NCBI GenBank assembly: GCA_002172625.1
Contig: NHEN01000002.1
Coordinates: forward strand, 1 to 42,822
Source: Verrucomicrobiaceae bacterium TMED86
GTDB lineage: Bacteria; Verrucomicrobiota; Verrucomicrobiia; Verrucomicrobiales; Akkermansiaceae
Length of the DNA: 42,822 bases
Direction of reading: 5' to 3'
The notes beneath the pieces are model-generated. The model did no database searches. It saw only the letters and a list, made by a program, of their open reading frames with translations, and was not told where the DNA came from. The position numbers and the translations under genes are program-made. Positions 3,899-12,520 of this stretch are shown piece by piece; the stretch's first letter is position 1, and each line of letters starts with the position of its first letter.

Positions 3899-6800
3899 CT
3901 ACCCCATCCAGCCAGCGAGTTCACGCTGGAGAGCCGGATTCAGATTCACGTTGAAGCTTTCGGGCAACTCAATGGTCGCCCGCTTCCCGGCCCCGCTTTG
4001 AATGTGCATCAAGACGGGGACCTTTCCAGGATACTCGCGAAGAACCTCTTTGATCTTTTGGAGATCATCCGGATTGTTCCGCCCGGTCCAGAGAATCAAT
4101 TCCAAGGCCCCTCCGACTTTCTTGCGCTTAGATTTCAGCTCTTTGATCTGGGATCCCGTCAGGCGTCGTTGCTCGGTCCGATCATCGACACTGACCTGCG
4201 CCTTGAATTGAATCACCTTACCCGCCTCCATCAGCCCGGCATCACGCGCCGGCAGATAGGACTCCGACCAACAAACCATTTCGCGATCCCCGGTAAAGTC
4301 CTGTAGATAGACTACGCCAAATGGCTTCCCGGTTCGAGTGGTCTTGTGCTCCACCATGCGAATCATTCCTGCGAAGGGAAAACGAGCCCGCTTGTCGCTG
4401 AGATCCACTTCGTCGAGGAGGCCGAACTTGATGAAACGATCGGAATCGACGACGCCGCGAAATTTATCAAGCGGATGCCCGGTGACGTAAAATCCGAGGA
4501 GTTCTTTTTCGTGTTCCAATCGCTCATCCTTCGGCCATTCCTCAATCGCCGGACTCTTATCCGTCACCGGCGGAGGGGCCGCGAATTGCATTGCGTCAAA
4601 TAAACCGCCCTGCCCAGTGGCCCGGTCTTTTTGCGCACTACTGGCACTGGCGACCACCTTTTCGACCCGTGCTGTCATCCCGGCACGCGACTCACCCGTC
4701 CAGTCGAGGGCGCCGGCCTTAATGAGGTTTTCGAGAATGCGTTTATTAATCGTTTTGGAATCGAGACGGTTGCAAAAATCATCAAGTGATTCAAAGGGAC
4801 CGTTTTCCTCGCGATCCTTGATCGCCATGGCCATGGCACCGGCACCGACATTTTTGATCGCCGCCAATCCGTAGCGAATTCCCTGCCTCCCCCCCAGAAC
4901 CTCCTCAGGCGAAAACCGCAGCTGTGACTTATTAAGATCGGGTGGAAGAATTTCAAAATTCATCCGCTGGCATTCGTTCACAAAGACACCAATTTTATCA
5001 GTGTTGTTGATCTCGTTCGACAGCAGGCCCGACATGAATTCCACCGGGAAATTCGCCTTCAAATAACCGGTCCAATACGAAATGAATCCGTAACAAGCCG
5101 AGTGTGATTTATTGAAACCATATCCTGCGAAACCCGCGATCTTATCGAAAATCAGGTTGGCATTGCGTTCATCGATATCATTGGTTTCCTTCGCCCCTTT
5201 CACGAAAGTTTCCCGCTGCTTGTCCATCTCTTCCTTCTTCTTCTTACCCATCGCGCGGCGAAGAATATCCGCACCACCCAAAGTATAACCCGCGAGCATC
5301 TTGGCGGCATTCTGAACCTGCTCCTGATAGATCATCACCCCGTAGGTGTCTCCGCAAATTTCTTCAAGGAGAGGATGTTCGTAATTGGGCTGCTGGCGCC
5401 CTTCCTTCACCTCGATCATTTGATCGATGTACTGCATCGCACCGGGACGATAGAGCGCGAGAAGGTCAATAATGTCCTCGATCTTGTTAATACCATACTT
5501 GCGGCAGGTTTCGACCATCCCGCCACTCTCCAACTGAAAGACTCCCATCGTCTCACCCGCATTGAGCATTTTAAAGGTGGCTTTGTCTTCCAGCGAGATT
5601 TCGTAAATATCAAAGTCTGGCGTGTGCTTGTGAATATGATCCACCGCCTCCTGGATCACAGTCATGTTTTTCAAGCCAAGGAAGTCCATCTTGAGCAATC
5701 CCACATCGGTAATCGCTCCCATGTCGTATTGGGTGACCACTTCCCCCTCATTACCCCGGGTCAACGGAACGTGTTCGTCGAGATTTCCATCGCCAATCAC
5801 CACTCCCGCCGCATGCACCCCAACGTTTCTGGTGAGGCCTTCCAGTTTCAAGGCATACTCCCAGAGTTGCTCATAGGTCGAACTACTTTCGATCAATTCC
5901 CTCAGCTCGGCTTTCTCCTTATACTCACCAGCCAGTTTCACTCCGGGCTTAGCCTCGATCATCTTGGAAATGGTATCCGCTTCCCCGTAGCTAATACCCA
6001 TCACCCGGGCGACATCGCGGATCACCGACTTGGCTCCCAAGGTGCCGTAGGTGATGATATGGGAGACGCAGCGCTCTCCATACTTGCGACGGACATATTC
6101 GATGACCTCGGGGCGACGGGTTTGACAGAAGTCGATATCAACATCGGGCGGACTCACCCGCTCGGGGTTAAGGAATCGCTCAAACAACAGGCCAAATCGT
6201 ATCGGACAAATGTCGGTGATCAGCATGCAATACGCGACCAAAGATCCGGCAGCCGATCCCCGGCCGGGCCCGACCGGAATCTTGTTATCCTTCGCCCAAA
6301 CAATAAAGTCTGCTGTGATCAGGAAATACGAAGAAAACTTGAGTTGGGTAATAATTCCCATCTCATACTCCAATCGCTCGATCAACTCGGGGTCCTTGGC
6401 TCTCTCACCGTAACGGAGTTCCAAACCCCGGTAGCACTCGGCCCGGAAGAATTCGTTCGGAGTCGAGCCATCTTCAGGCTGGAATTCGGGATATTTTTCG
6501 GACGAGGTCGGATCAAGGACAAACTCGACATTGCATCGCTCGGCAATCTCCAGGGTCGCATCGCATGCTCCGGGAATCTCAGCAAAGAGGTCACGCATTT
6601 CCTCGGCCGTTTTAAAGTAGACTTCAGTCGGGTATCTCATGCGATTTTCGTCGATCACAAGTCGTCCGATTCCGATGCAAATCATCACGTCATGCGCCTC
6701 GTGATCATCGCGGTTCAAAAAATGAACATCGTTCGCGGCAACAGTCTTCACGCCCATCTTTTCCGCAAAGCGAACCAACACCTCGTTGCACTTCGCCTGC

Positions 6801-7366
6801 TGCTCCATCCCGTGGTTGTGGACCTCAAAATAGAAATTTTCTTTCCCATAGATCTCTGCAAGTTCCACCGCAGTTTCCCATGCAATATCCTCCTGGTCTT
6901 GAAGAATCCACTCATTGACCGGACCGGAAATACAACCGCTCAGGCAGATGATTCCTTCCGAGAATTTTTGAAGAAGTTCGCGATCCACCCGGGGCTTTCC
7001 GTAATAGGAACCCTCCAAATGCCCCACAGAAACCAGCTTCTGCAAATTCACCCAACCGACATTATTCTCCGCCAGGAGAGTCATGTGACAGGCGCGCTTG
7101 CGGCCGGGGATTTCCTTTTTGTCCTCGATACCCTCCGGGGCGAGATAGATTTCACATCCCAGGATGGGCTTCACCCCGGCAGACTTACAGGCCTTGTAAA
7201 ACGAGATCGCTCCGAAGAGATTCCCATGATCGGTCATCGCCACCGCCGGCATTCCCAGCTCAGCAGCCCGGGCCGCCACGTCTTTGGTCCGGCAGGCTCC
7301 ATCGAGCGTGGAATACTCGGTATGCAAATGGAGATGGACAAAGGAATCGGACATCCCCGTCACCAT
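3899..7366 (-). CDS. dnaE: DNA polymerase III alpha subunit
   Basis: 1155 aa. It has an N-terminal PHP domain (FVHLHLHTEYSTLDGA), polymerase core motifs (GPGRGSAAGSLVAYCMLITDICP, DIDIDF, GLLKMDFLGL) and FNKSHSACYG. Confidence 0.97.
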   Translation of the reverse strand: MVTGMSDSFVHLHLHTEYSTLDGACRTKDVAARAAELGMPAVAMTDHGNLFGAISFYKACKSAGVKPILGCEIYLAPEGIEDKKEIPGRKRACHMTLLAENNVGWVNLQKLVSVGHLEGSYYGKPRVDRELLQKFSEGIICLSGCISGPVNEWILQDQEDIAWETAVELAEIYGKENFYFEVHNHGMEQQAKCNEVLVRFAEKMGVKTVAANDVHFLNRDDHEAHDVMICIGIGRLVIDENRMRYPTEVYFKTAEEMRDLFAEIPGACDATLEIAERCNVEFVLDPTSSEKYPEFQPEDGSTPNEFFRAECYRGLELRYGERAKDPELIERLEYEMGIITQLKFSSYFLITADFIVWAKDNKIPVGPGRGSAAGSLVAYCMLITDICPIRFGLLFERFLNPERVSPPDVDIDFCQTRRPEVIEYVRRKYGERCVSHIITYGTLGAKSVIRDVARVMGISYGEADTISKMIEAKPGVKLAGEYKEKAELRELIESSSTYEQLWEYALKLEGLTRNVGVHAAGVVIGDGNLDEHVPLTRGNEGEVVTQYDMGAITDVGLLKMDFLGLKNMTVIQEAVDHIHKHTPDFDIYEISLEDKATFKMLNAGETMGVFQLESGGMVETCRKYGINKIEDIIDLLALYRPGAMQYIDQMIEVKEGRQQPNYEHPLLEEICGDTYGVMIYQEQVQNAAKMLAGYTLGGADILRRAMGKKKKEEMDKQRETFVKGAKETNDIDERNANLIFDKIAGFAGYGFNKSHSACYGFISYWTGYLKANFPVEFMSGLLSNEINNTDKIGVFVNECQRMNFEILPPDLNKSQLRFSPEEVLGGRQGIRYGLAAIKNVGAGAMAMAIKDREENGPFESLDDFCNRLDSKTINKRILENLIKAGALDWTGESRAGMTARVEKVVASASSAQKDRATGQGGLFDAMQFAAPPPVTDKSPAIEEWPKDERLEHEKELLGFYVTGHPLDKFRGVVDSDRFIKFGLLDEVDLSDKRARFPFAGMIRMVEHKTTRTGKPFGVVYLQDFTGDREMVCWSESYLPARDAGLMEAGKVIQFKAQVSVDDRTEQRRLTGSQIKELKSKRKKVGGALELILWTGRNNPDDLQKIKEVLREYPGKVPVLMHIQSGAGKRATIELPESFNVNLNPALQRELAGWMG

Positions 7367-7569
7367 GTCACGGAACGGGCAAGTTTGAACTCAGAACTGA
7401 CGAGGTGAACACTTTGTGAATAAGTTTTCCTGATAATCCATAATTCCCCTTCTCCAAGGTAAGTTCAAGCATTGTTCCGGATCGCTAAAAAAAACTGGGC
7501 ACGCCGGATAAATGTGTTTTAGTGCGGACTGTCGGGGGGTAATTCAACATCCTCGCAACCAAAGAAAAC

Positions 7570-7914
7570 ATGAAAACTACAATCACAATGATCGCTGCTT
7601 TTGCAGCTTTCACAGCCGGAGCCGCTGCCGCTCCAGTCGTGACAACCACAACCACCCAAGCGGAAGTTGTGGCTGCTGATGAAAAGACGACCGTTTTGGC
7701 CGTCACAGGATTACGGTGAGCATCCGGATGTTCTAGAAAAGTGCAGGCTGCACTTAAAGGAGTAAAGGGAGTCACCAAAGTTAAAGTCGGCAAAAAGACC
7801 GGCACTAATGCTGACACCACCGTTACCGCTGGGAAAGGCGTCAAAGTTGCCGACATGGTCGCCGCCCTTAAAAAGGTTGGTTACGGTGCCACTGAAAAGA
7901 AGGCAGATTCGTAA
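7570..7914 (+). CDS. secreted HMA (heavy-metal-associated, MerP/CopZ-like) domain protein with an in-frame TGA at 7717-7719; candidate selenoprotein, otherwise a pseudogene
   Basis: Hand translation gives MKTTITMIAAFAAFTAGAAAAPVVTTTTTQAEVVAADEKTTVLAVTGLR-[TGA]-ASGCSRKVQAALKGVKGVTKVKVGKKTGTNADTTVTAGKGVKVADMVAALKKVGYGATEKKADS-TAA. Both halves share one frame and together give a signal peptide plus a complete beta-alpha-beta-beta-alpha-beta HMA layout. The TGA occupies the first Cys position of the metal-binding loop. Each half is under 60 aa, so the gene is missing from the ORF track. Two hairpins follow the TAA. Confidence 0.55.
7732..7761 (+). promoter_or_regulatory. SECIS-like stem-loop downstream of the in-frame TGA
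   Basis: AAGUGCA-GGC-UGCACUU forms a perfect 7-bp stem (7739-7745 with 7749-7755) with apical loop GGC at 7746-7748. A possible 3-bp lower stem pairs 7732-7734 with 7759-7761. There are 26 nt between the UGA and the apical loop. The apex resembles my memory of the E. coli fdhF SECIS apex (GCAGGUCUGC). Confidence 0.4.
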
Positions 7915-7962
7915 TCTGATTCAGTTCGATAAGAACTGAACCCTGATATTTTTCAAATTTAG

Positions 7963-8000
7963 AAACCCACGTTGTCACATGACAGCGTGGGTTTTTATTT
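7963..8000 (+). terminator. rho-independent terminator after the HMA gene
   Basis: The stem pairs AAACCCACGTTGTC (7963-7976) with GACAGCGTGGGTTT (7981-7994), with one G-U pair and loop ACAT. It is followed by a T-rich run (ending TTTTTATTT at 8000). A weaker AT-rich hairpin (TTCAGTTC/GAACTGAA) lies at 7920-7940. Confidence 0.8.
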
Positions 8001-8271
8001 AACCTTTCCGTAATATTTTCTAACTGGGAATTCCTGACAAACAGAGGGGAAATCGACGATCCACCCTTGGTGCGGAATTACATTTTATGAAATTCGCCGC
8101 CACAGACATGAAACTGGATGGCTGCAATGATGATGCCCGAGCCTCCCCGCAATGGACCCGCGAGCAATTGAGCCATGACCAAAGGAAATGGTTCCTCTCA
8201 CCGCCATGATGGGAAATTTTGTCATCGCCCACGCCAATTTGATCGATCCGGAGATTTCCTCAATTCACTCT

Positions 8272-8332: not shown

Positions 8333-11300
8333 TTATTCACCTAACGCCTCGGCGGGAGGAGTATCAGCAACTTCCGACGGAGGAGTAATCTCTTCACCTT
8401 CGGGTGTTTCAGGCTCTTCCTTCACAGGCTCGGGCTCTTCCACGGTCATTTCGAAGTCTGAGCTCTTGTGAACAGGGAATCCGGTTCCAGCTGGGATGAG
8501 GTGGCCGAGAATGACGTTCTCCTTGAATCCGCGGAGAGTATCAATCTTTCCGAGAGTCGCGGCATCAGTCAGCACACGGGTGGTGTCCTGGAAGGACGCT
8601 GCCGAGATGAAGGATTCCGTCTCAATCGAGGCCTTGGTGATTCCGAGGAGAACGGGCTCAGCTTCGGCAGGCTTACCACCCTCTGAAGTGACACGCTTGT
8701 TTTCGGCATTGAAGGTCGTCTTCTCAATCTGGTCACCCCAAAGGAATTCGGTATCGCCCGGCTCGGTGATCTTCACTTTGCGAAGCATTTGACGGATGAT
8801 GATCTCGATGTGCTTGTCATTAATCTCGACACCCTGCGAACGGTAAACGGTCTGAACCTCATTATTAAGGTGCTCCTGCAGTGCCTGCGGTCCGCATGCC
8901 TCGAGGAGGTCTTCCGGAGCAACAGGTCCCTCGGTAATCTGATCACCACGCAACACCGTATCTCCTTCACCAACAATCATGTGCTTGCCCATTGGAACAA
9001 GGTGATCAGCGGTTTCGCCGGATTCGAGGTGAGTTACGATGACCTTGCGCTTACCGCGGACAGTGCCTCCAAAGGAGATTTCACCGTCGAGCTTGGCAAT
9101 GACACAGGCGTCTTTCGGACGACGAGCTTCGAAGAGTTCGGCAACCCGTGGAAGACCGCCGGTAATGTCACCGGTCTTGGCAACTTTACGTGGAGTTCGT
9201 GCAAGCTGCGTTCCGCCAGCGATCTTCTGCTTATCCTTCACCGCGAGGCGAGCACCCACTGGGATCGAGTAGCTGTGAAGCACATCACCGGACTTGGCAT
9301 TAACGATAACAACCTGCGGGTGAAGGTCTTCTTTGTGCTCTGTAACAGTCATCCCCTTTTTACCGGTCTGCTTGTCTGTTTCAGACTGCACGGTAATTCC
9401 AGAAATCATGTCGCGGAACTCAACCTTGCCACCGCTTTCAGCGATGATGGGGACAGAGTGCGGATCCCAAGTCAGGATCTTCTGCCCTTTCTTCACGTTG
9501 CCGCCGTCTCCGACGGTAATGAAGGAACCAATCACAACATTGTAGGATTCAAGCTCGAGGCCATCGGCGTCGCGCACGAGAATCGAACCACCTTTGTTCA
9601 GAACAACATGGTTTCCATCAACATCCTCAACAGTGCGAAGTTCTTTGAAATACATCACACCCTTACTCTTGGACTTCACCTCGGGCTGCTTGCTGGCACC
9701 AATGGCCACACCACCGGAGTGGAATGTCCGCATGGTCAGCTGCGTTCCGGGCTCACCAATCGACTGGGCAGCGATGATACCGACGGCTTCACCAATCTTA
9801 CCAAGGTTTCCGGTCGCTAGATTGAGGCCATAACAAGTTTGGCAACATCCACGCTCGGATTCACAAGTAAGCGGAGAGCGAATCTTGAGACGCTCGTGAC
9901 CGACGTTCTCGACGGCTTTGGAAATTTCTTCATCCATCAACTGACCAATCTTAACGATGGTTTTCCCAGTGACAGGATCAACGATCTTCTCGCAGGAAGA
10001 ACGACCAAAGATACGGGACTGCAGGGAAGCTGCTTCCTCGTCACCCGAGTAAATCGCGTGAACAGTGATCCCTTTTACGGTTCCGCAATCCGGTTCGGTG
10101 ATGATCACGTCCTGGGAGACATCAACCAACTTACGGGTCATGTATCCGGAGTCCGCAGTCTTAAGAGCGGTATCGGCGAGACCTTTACGCGCTCCGTGAG
10201 TGGAGATGAAGTATTCCAACACCGAAAGGCCTTCACGGAAGTTCGAAGTAATGGGACGCTCGATAATCTCACCCGACGGTTTGGCCATCAAACCACGCAT
10301 TCCGGAGAGCTGCTTAATCTGGTTCTTGTTACCACGAGCACCGGAGTCAACCATCATGAAGAGCGGATTGGCTTTCTCGGAACCTTCGTTATACTCAAGC
10401 TTACGATAAAGAGCATTCGCGATATTGTCGGAAGCGCGGGTCCAAACGTCGACCACCTTCTGGTAGCGCTCACCGTCGGTGATGACACCATTACGGTAAT
10501 GCTTGGAAACGGTCTCAATCTCAGCGTAAGCCTTCTTGAGCTCCTCGGGCTTCTCCTCGGGAATCACCATGTCGACGATACCAATGGAACAACCGGAACG
10601 GGTCGCTTCAGCAAAGCCAAGTGACTTCAAGCGATCCATGGTCTTTACAGTCTCGGGACCACCGGCACACTGATAGCAGCGCCAAATGATGTCTCCGATT
10701 TGTCCTTTGCCGACGTTATTGTTGATAAAGCCAACTCCTTCGGGCCAGATCTCGTTGAAACGAACACGACCGGGAGTGGTTTCGAGAATCTTGGCTTCCT
10801 TGTCACCAAAGACAGTGTCTTTACCGTAGTCCGGGTTACGCACGCGGATGTACTGGTGGTAGTCGACCTTGCGGTTGGCAATCGCGAACTCCACTTCAGT
10901 GGTGTTTTCGAAGAGGCTCAAGTGACCTTGCTTTTCGATCTCCTTAGGAGTGCGAACTCGGGCCCAGGTGAGGTAGTAGGTTCCAAGAATAATGTCCTGC
11001 GAAGGAGTAATCACGGGACGTCCGGATGCCGGTGAGAAGATGTTATTGGTCGCAAGCATAAGCTGGCGACACTCCATCTGGGCTTCAACCGAAAGTGGCA
11101 CGTGCACCGCCATCTGATCACCATCGAAGTCGGCATTGTATGCTCCGCAAGTCAGCGGGTGCAAACGAATAGCAGATCCCTCAATGAGGACGGGCTCGAA
11201 AGCCTGGATGGACAAACGGTGGAGGGTCGGCGCGCGGTTCAGCATCACCGGATGACCTTTGGTCACTTCAGCAAGGATGTCCCAAACTTCGGTGGTCTTG

Positions 11301-12520
11301 CGGTCGATCATCTTCTTGGCTGAACGAACAGTATGGCAGTAACCCAGCTCCTTCAGACGACGGATGATGAACGGCTCGAAGAGAGTCAGAGCCATCTTCT
11401 TGGGAAGACCGCACTGGTTCAACTTAAGCTCAGGGCCAATCACGATCACGGAACGACCGGAGTAGTCCACACGCTTACCAAGGAGATTCTGACGGAAACG
11501 TCCGCCCTTACCCTTGAGCATATCGGAAAGCGACTTAAGAGCACGGTTGCCGGCTCCGGTCACGGCACGTCCATGACGTCCGTTATCGAAGAGGGCATCA
11601 ACCGCCTCCTGCAGCATGCGCTTTTCGTTTCGGATAATGACTTCAGGAGTCTTCAACTGCATCAAGTTGCGGAGACGATTGTTCCGGTTAATGACACGGC
11701 GATAGAGATCGTTCAGGTCGGAAGTCGCAAAGCGGCCACCTTCCAAAGGAACCAGAGGACGAAGATCGGGAGGAATGACAGGAAGAACCGTCATGATCAT
11801 CCACTCGGGACGCGTATTCGAGTAGAGGAATCCGCGGGCGAGCTTGAGGCGCTTGGCCAGCTTCTTGCGGTTCTGCTTCGAACGAGTCGCTTCCATGGCC
11901 TCTTCAAGCTCAACGATAAGCTTTTCAAGGTCGGTTTGGCTCAGGAGATCACGAATCGCCTCGGCACCCATTCCGGCGCGGAAGGCTTCGTCACCGTAAT
12001 CTTCCTCGGCGTCACGGAGTTCATTTTCAGTGAGGAGTTGGCCAGCCTCAAGAGGAGTCTTACCGGGCTCGGTCACAAGGTAGTCCTCATAGTAAATAAC
12101 ACGCTCAAGTTCACGCGCGGTCATGTCGAGGACAAGACCGATACGGGAAGGCATGCACTTGTAGAACCAAATGTGGGAGACCGGAACAGCAAGGTCGATG
12201 TGGCCCATGCGCTCACGACGAACCCGAGAGAGGGTCACCTCAACACCACAACGGTCACAGACGGTGCCCTTGTGTTTGATGCGCTTGTATTTCCCGCAGG
12301 CACATTCCCAGTCGCGGGTCGGTCCGAAGATCCGCTCGCAGAAGAGCCCGCCTTTTTCCGGCTTGAATGTCCGGTAGTTGATGGTTTCAGGATTGAGAAC
12401 CTCGCCATTGGACCAAGACCGAATGGTCTCGGGATTGGCGACGGTAATGGAAACCTGGTCGAAGGGATCCGGCTTGGTATCCACTCCGTATAGTTCGCGA
12501 AGATTAGTTTCAACACTCAT
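8333..12520 (-). CDS. rpoC: DNA-directed RNA polymerase beta' subunit
   Basis: 1395 aa. It has the zinc finger [23 protein letters not shown], the catalytic [12 protein letters not shown] and trigger-loop/bridge-helix regions. Confidence 0.98.

Follow-up and report, generated by a model that had tools for sequence, protein, structure and literature searches.

A probable SECIS hairpin within the helix α1 codons of a predicted MerP-like selenoprotein gene from marine Akkermansiaceae

The window, by which we mean the whole 42,822-nt stretch of DNA analysed here, carries a lone plus-strand unit between dnaE and rpoC, both of which lie on the minus strand (Table 1). With translation table 11 this unit appears as two open reading frames, 7570-7719 and 7741-7914, which become a single 114-codon frame if the TGA that ends the first of them is read as a sense codon. 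The resulting product, MKTTITMIAAFAAFTAGAAAAP...VTGLR-U-ASGC-SRKVQAALKGVKGV..., starts with a hydrophobic N-terminal signal, which is followed by an HMA-like domain. A terminator-like hairpin downstream of the gene ends a monocistronic unit, and a search of positions 7400-8100 against Rfam gave just weak matches to this hairpin (~7963-7999) plus sub-threshold noise. No metal-resistance genes are adjacent to the gene in the window.

Table 1 Features of the locus, and related genes referred to in the text.
Feature	Position	Strand	Details
dnaE	3899-7366	−	
Predicted selenoprotein gene	7570-7914	+	114 codons with one in-frame TGA; ATG at 7570, TAA at 7912-7914; read-through translation
Probable N-terminal signal peptide	7570-7632	+	MKTTITMIAAFAAFTAGAAAA; hydrophobic N-terminus, putative cleavage site
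Predicted Sec codon, U50	7717-7719	+	UGA; aligned with Cys1 of MerP and CopA, the first metal ligand in HMA domains
UGA-proximal hairpin	7718-7733	+	GAGCAU-CCGG-AUGUUC; present in the RNAfold MFE structure
Codon of Cys54, predicted second metal ligand	7729-7731	+	Cys invariant in relatives; gives the U-x-x-x-C loop
Probable SECIS hairpin	7739-7755	+	7-bp stem, 7739-7745 with 7749-7755; apical loop GGC, 7746-7748; within the K57-L62 codons of helix α1
Intrinsic-terminator-like hairpin and U-run	7963-7999	+	AAACCCACGUUGUCA-CA-UGACAGCGUGGGUUUUUAUUU; ~50 nt past the stop codon; several weak Rfam matches on the stem and U-tract
rpoC	8333-12520	−	
selB (L001)	C12:1483-3426	−	
selD (L010)	C2:32487-33416	−	Sec in SSCGG-U-ASKLG
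Candidate FG-GAP/VCBS-like secreted selenoprotein gene (L156)	C74:15135-16316	+	Motif GVW-U-CTSS
Cys-containing close homologue (L109)	G089:C6:17832-18167	−	Motif C-G-A-S-C
Duplicated copy (L036)	G012:C2:1892380-1892919		
Further duplicated copies			L117, L120, L122, L129, L130

As a single sequence, the product scores 21.2 bits against the Pfam HMA model (PF00403), under the gathering score of 24.8. A profile made from 15 members of the family matches MerP (PDB code 1afi, E 9e-11) and 27 further HMA chains in the PDB. The AF2 model of the domain displays the β-α-β-β-α-β fold with pLDDT values of 84-90, residues 1-34 being modelled at low pLDDT, and its best Foldseek match is again MerP (PDB code 1osd, TM 0.84). 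The loop GLR-U-ASG-C is one residue longer than the CxxC of classical domains (C-A-A-C of MerP in the profile alignment). The sequence thus departs from the GMxCxxC metal-binding motif in having Sec in place of the first Cys and a ligand-to-ligand stretch that is longer by one residue. We take the product to be a MerP-like HMA protein that is probably secreted and has a U-A-S-G-C loop predicted to bind metal.

The TGA is kept as a sense codon in the relatives of this gene. A six-frame search returned at least 26 same-genus orthologues (53-98% identity), each carrying a single TGA, always at this codon, and the TGA is invariant in the 24 of 24 orthologues that are distinct from one another. Across 301 genomes of the bacterial family, a profile search found ~90 places with one TGA at this codon, in genera g1, g19, g28, g31, g32 and g37, and the relatives with named records are MAGs of marine Akkermansiaceae and Verrucomicrobiales. 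Neither 400 genomes sampled across the phylum nor 24 genomes of other families in the order contained UGA members outside Akkermansiaceae. The protein family is almost always in the Sec form. Median dN/dS is 0.16 over the 15 codons 5′ of the TGA and 0.27 over the 50 codons 3′ of it, with dS ~0.9; there is purifying selection on both flanks, and therefore both halves are translated in this frame.

Members of the family vary in several ways around this common core. A minority (L093, L123, L135 and L136) have UxxC instead of UxxxC. Many paralogues (L038, L042 and L119-L144) carry lipoprotein-type signals, with Cys after LISC, LVSC or LVAC, and part of the family is thus probably membrane-anchored rather than soluble in the periplasm. 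Several relatives have a duplicated HMA selenoprotein. The copies are fused into a two-domain protein with two Sec codons or stand side by side as tandem genes, and each has its own hairpin (Table 1).

In a collection of 5.8 billion proteins, the family is represented solely by N-terminal fragments that stop at the TGA and by full-length products that have W there. Entries of these kinds include P0002, P0003, P0004 and P0005, in which the Trp apparently stems from code-4 style gene calls on short contigs. Because the public entries are only fragments or Trp-containing products, the family is systematically misannotated.

The hairpin of interest starts 19 nt 3′ of the UGA. The initial annotation of this DNA described it as a perfect 7-bp stem, AAGUGCA-GGC-UGCACUU, with a UGA-to-loop distance of 26 nt, and both statements are exact: the window reads AAGTGCA / GGC / TGCACTT, and positions 7720-7745 make up the 26 nt that separate UGA and loop. 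Folding of 7717-7790, and likewise of 7717-7766, with RNAfold places the hairpin in both the MFE and the centroid structures. In a 121-nt context its base pairs have probabilities of 0.66-1.0. The bare hairpin has an energy of −6.4 kcal/mol, or −7.4 kcal/mol with dangling ends. Perfect 7-bp hairpins with loops of 3-5 nt occur 14 times on the plus strand of the 42.8-kb window, two of the 14 having a loop that opens with G, and from the hairpin counts in the window the chance of finding such a hairpin in one slot of ~25 nt is ~0.001-0.01. The fold z-scores of the whole segments, −0.12 and −1.45, are not significant. As these z-scores are unremarkable, the single sequence is weak evidence by itself, and it is the comparative data that carry the case.

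Those data point to selection on the RNA. The six codons at +7 to +12 relative to the TGA (AAA GTG CAG GCT GCA CTT) show zero synonymous change among the 24 distinct orthologues at a dS of ~0.9. Synonymous variation is found in the same orthologues at other invariant residues: L-7, V-5, G-3, L-2, G+3, C+4, V+15 and G+17. RNAalifold gives the 7-bp hairpin as the sole consensus structure downstream of the UGA. We aligned 72 distinct TGA genes, using the Val codon as the anchor, and found compensatory variation at three of the seven stem pairs, the remaining pairs being essentially invariant. The closing pair (19:23) is AU in 47 genes, GC in 12 and GU in 12; pair 13:29 is AU in 50, GU in five, CG in four, GC in four and UA in one; and pair 16:26 is UA in 70 and CG in two. 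Neither the observed covariation score nor the percentage paired was reached by any of 500 shuffles, and sliding the 3′ partner drops pairing from 75% to 20-54%. The stem does not vary inside the home genus, and so the covariation derives from the remoter paralogues and the other genera.

Some of these changes can be followed through the protein. A Gln to Arg replacement on the 5′ arm (CAG to CGG) is offset by a synonymous UCU to UCC change on the 3′ arm, and a Val to Ala replacement (GUG to GCG) is offset by a synonymous GCA to GCG change. The Arg codon is always CGG, and because of this the first base of the loop stays G, as it is in 72 of the 72 genes. The second base is G or U: the loops found are GGC, GUC, GGA, GGU and GUU, and many relatives have GUC. 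As the same 18 nt encode K-V-Q-A-A-L of helix α1, the constraint on the RNA and that on the protein act together.

Two other structures near the UGA do not share this conservation. A lower helix of 3 bp, proposed between UCU (7732-7734) and GGA (7759-7761), does not survive the comparison: across relatives, no more than 41% of cells show it paired. We also considered the UGA-proximal hairpin at 7718-7733 as a part of the conserved element. It is paired in 74% of cells, a level reached by 362 of 500 shuffles, its covariation does not exceed that of the shuffles, and it is not picked by RNAalifold; this hairpin is probably facultative and lies outside the conserved element.

We then have two kinds of genes without the UGA for comparison. 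The only close homologue with Cys, L109, has TGC at the Sec codon. It writes its helix residues K-V-Q-S-V-L as GUU CAA ... GUG, and the stem is lost: the homologous segment, AAAGUUCAAUCUGUGCUU, has an energy of −2.4 kcal/mol and a loop lacking G. L109 has in addition a Cys-rich stretch near its N-terminus, EGEDCTDCPH. A search of 5.8 billion proteins for further Cys orthologues with L109 as query returned L109 alone, which leaves this close-homologue control at n = 1. The second kind is made up of 12 classical CxxC HMA domains of the same bacterial family, in which the hairpin is absent from the homologous position. Seven of the 12 were scored, at +2.8 to +14 kcal/mol, versus a median of −6.4 kcal/mol (range −8.9 to −3.5) in the U genes. 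The contrast that would be expected of a SECIS is therefore seen: TGA genes keep the hairpin by compensatory changes, and neither the single Cys homologue nor the CxxC HMA genes have it.

The genome (196 contigs, 78% complete) encodes the whole apparatus on which such an element would depend: SelB, SelA, SelD and tRNA-Sec are all present. SelB scores 275 bits, over the cut-off, and comprises the EF-Tu GTPase domain, the SelB β-barrel and a C-terminal SelB-wing_3 domain (58.6 bits). Its translation contains scattered X around residues 113-146, arising from N in the DNA, and the Pfam domain calls are unaffected by them. SelA scores 488 bits and SelD 374 bits, and the selD gene itself has a TGA. 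The tRNA-Sec gene on contig C101 was detected by both ARAGORN and Rfam (RF01852, 54 bits with a cut-off of 47).

A crude scan of the genome for a stem with a G(G/U)N triloop 14-36 nt past an ORF-interrupting TGA picked out selD, the MerP-like gene and, on contig C74, a gene for a secreted FG-GAP-like protein. The selD hairpin, CACGCAG-GUC-CUGCGUG, is located 33 nt past its UGA. Relatives of the FG-GAP-like gene with identities as low as 43% retain the TGA, and the hairpin UCCACA-G(G/U)U-UGUGGA, 20 nt after the UGA, is kept in relatives as well (the loop is GGU in this genome). Both resemble the hairpin of the MerP-like gene in having a perfect stem of 6-7 bp that is topped by a G(G/U)N triloop and follows the UGA by 20-33 nt; they differ from it in their stem sequences and host proteins and in the spacing itself, 33 and 20 nt versus 26 nt. 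All three hairpins are presumably served by one SelB.

A close known counterpart is the SECIS of E. coli fdhF, in which SelB binds a minimal upper stem-loop. Like it, the hairpin described here is intragenic, lies just 3′ of a UGA at a Sec position and has a loop opened by G. A likeness between the two apices had been suggested and is borne out by the sequences, GUGCA-GGC-UGCAC here and UUGCA-GGUC-UGCAC in fdhF; the fdhF SECIS sequence used for this comparison, with apex TTGCAGGTCTGCAC, is carried at fdhF by 5419 of the 5426 E. coli genomes. The corresponding apex in relatives of our gene is GUGC(A/G)-GUC-(U/C)GCAC. The two elements differ in the loop, which is GGUC accompanied by a bulged U in fdhF and GGC with no bulged U here, in the UGA-to-loop distance (18 nt versus 26 nt), and in the lower stem, as the element here lacks a conserved one leading back to the UGA. 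In E. coli and Moorella, a G-U dinucleotide of the SECIS loop contacts SelB, and the GGC loop of our gene is without it.

Beyond fdhF, the bSECISearch model, credited to Zhang and Gladyshev 2005 in the summary given by PMC13188914, provides a general consensus. As set out in that summary (its Fig. 2A), a bacterial SECIS has a loop of 3-9 nt, an upper stem of 4-16 bp and a UGA-to-loop distance of 16-37 nt, with one or more G at loop positions 1 and 2, usually as G[G/U]N, and an MFE of −7.5 kcal/mol or lower. Measured against this model, the hairpin agrees in loop size (3 nt), stem length (7 bp), the G[G/U]N pattern and spacing (26 nt), and it is borderline in free energy. For the latter, the outcome depends on the segment folded: −7.5 kcal/mol for 7720-7761 and −11.9 kcal/mol for 7717-7761, versus −6.4 or −7.4 kcal/mol for the bare hairpin.

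Taken from the sequence comparisons, the hairpin at 7739-7755 is very probably a genuine bacterial SECIS. We weighed this against a functional RNA that works without SelB, which might be a ribosome pause site, serving co-translational export or some other route of read-through, or an element of mRNA stability. The stem is short, the GGC loop of this genus lacks the canonical G-U, and the 4227 families of Rfam yielded no SECIS family among the matches to 7400-8100 at E ≤ 10, all of which would fit such a role, although the Rfam result has no bearing on the general mechanism. What makes this alternative very unlikely is that the hairpin is confined to members that contain the UGA and tracks it: in the UxxC variants the hairpin shifts with the coding sequence to lie 3 nt closer, so that it is found at either 23 or 26 nt after the UGA. 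The same combination of stem and G(G/U)N triloop also follows the UGA of selD and of the FG-GAP-like gene, and the SelB of this genome has an RNA-binding wing domain.

A little less credible again is the notion that the stem arises incidentally from the coding of a conserved amphipathic helix, K-V-Q-A-A-L, that it has no function as RNA, and that the UGA is decoded, or fails to be, independently of it. The position of the stem, wholly within the codons of helix α1, with the peptide VQAAL conserved, invites this thought, as does the unremarkable z-score of the single-sequence fold. However, a helix requirement of this sort would leave the six codons free to vary synonymously as other invariant residues do at the same dS, and they do not. 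It also would not call for a synonymous change on the opposite arm to match Q becoming R or V becoming A, nor for Arg to be written always as CGG, which keeps the loop G, and the Cys homologue, with K-V-Q-S-V-L in the same place, loses the stem. The least probable reading of all is that the UGA is not a Sec codon, being either a true stop that separates two small ORFs or marks a pseudogene, or a Trp codon in a reassigned code, the assumption made by some gene callers: the public fragments and W-containing proteins are of the kind it predicts, and UGA-to-Trp reassignment is reported for some Verrucomicrobiota in PMC13462651, but the 22 Trp codons of RpoC and DnaE in the window are all TGG, with no in-frame TGA in either gene, the TGA recurs as a single codon in ~90 homologues and is flanked on either side by sequence under purifying selection, its aligned counterpart is the metal-ligand Cys in MerP and TGC in the Cys homologue, and the Sec machinery in the genome is complete.

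If the hairpin is a SECIS, it would act in a way that follows established knowledge of these elements. With a ribosome at the UGA, the hairpin 19 nt downstream would be exposed at the mRNA entrance, where the C-terminal winged-helix domain of SelB would bind the apical loop that starts with G. The bound hairpin would then tether SelB-GTP-Sec-tRNA(Sec) at the A site, and the UGA would be decoded as selenocysteine, not as a stop. This mechanism of selenocysteine decoding is ordinary, and nothing in it is mechanistically new.

We wondered whether the protein family is already catalogued. The nearest NCBIfam model is NF041115, a UxxU metal-binding selenoprotein, against which our protein scores 35.1 bits versus a cut-off of 95. 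The HMA ferredoxin-like fold is common to NF041115, MerP, CopZ and the present family, which has Sec at the first ligand position. It differs from the others in having one Sec in a U-x-x-x-C loop instead of UxxU or CxxC, and in being secreted or lipoprotein-anchored. Reviews of prokaryotic selenoproteomes from 2022 and 2026 name MerT-like, P-type ATPase (UxxC), UxxU and CopZ-related 2Fe-2S families, and their open-access text contains no PF00403 family with U-x-x-x-C. As the literature coverage is that of open-access text, the status of the family as uncatalogued is provisional. A selenoprotein from the GOS survey that was called ‘MerP’ (PMC2398784) was also considered as a possible member, and its sequence is unrelated.

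We tentatively suggest, as a reading that could well be revised, that these genes form an uncatalogued family of secreted or lipoprotein-type, MerP-like U-x-x-x-C selenoproteins, seen only in Akkermansiaceae, most of them marine, in which the SECIS resides in the codons of helix α1 and the RNA and the helix have co-evolved (Q or R together with A or S). In such proteins, a Se-S chelate may provide a distinctive means of scavenging periplasmic Hg, Cu or other soft metals.

Standard annotation misses the gene described here, and recognition of the SECIS restores a 114-residue secreted selenoprotein that is predicted to bind metal, as well as a marine Akkermansiaceae family of ~90 genes. These genes are a clean illustration from nature of a doubly constrained SECIS, where helix α1 and the stem are written on the same bases, with compensatory changes in the U genes and loss of the stem in a matched Cys homologue. 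Together with selD and the FG-GAP-like gene, the family gives a working SECIS consensus for this lineage, namely a stem of 6-7 bp with a G(G/U)N triloop, 20-33 nt downstream of the UGA, which could be used to find the remaining selenoproteome.
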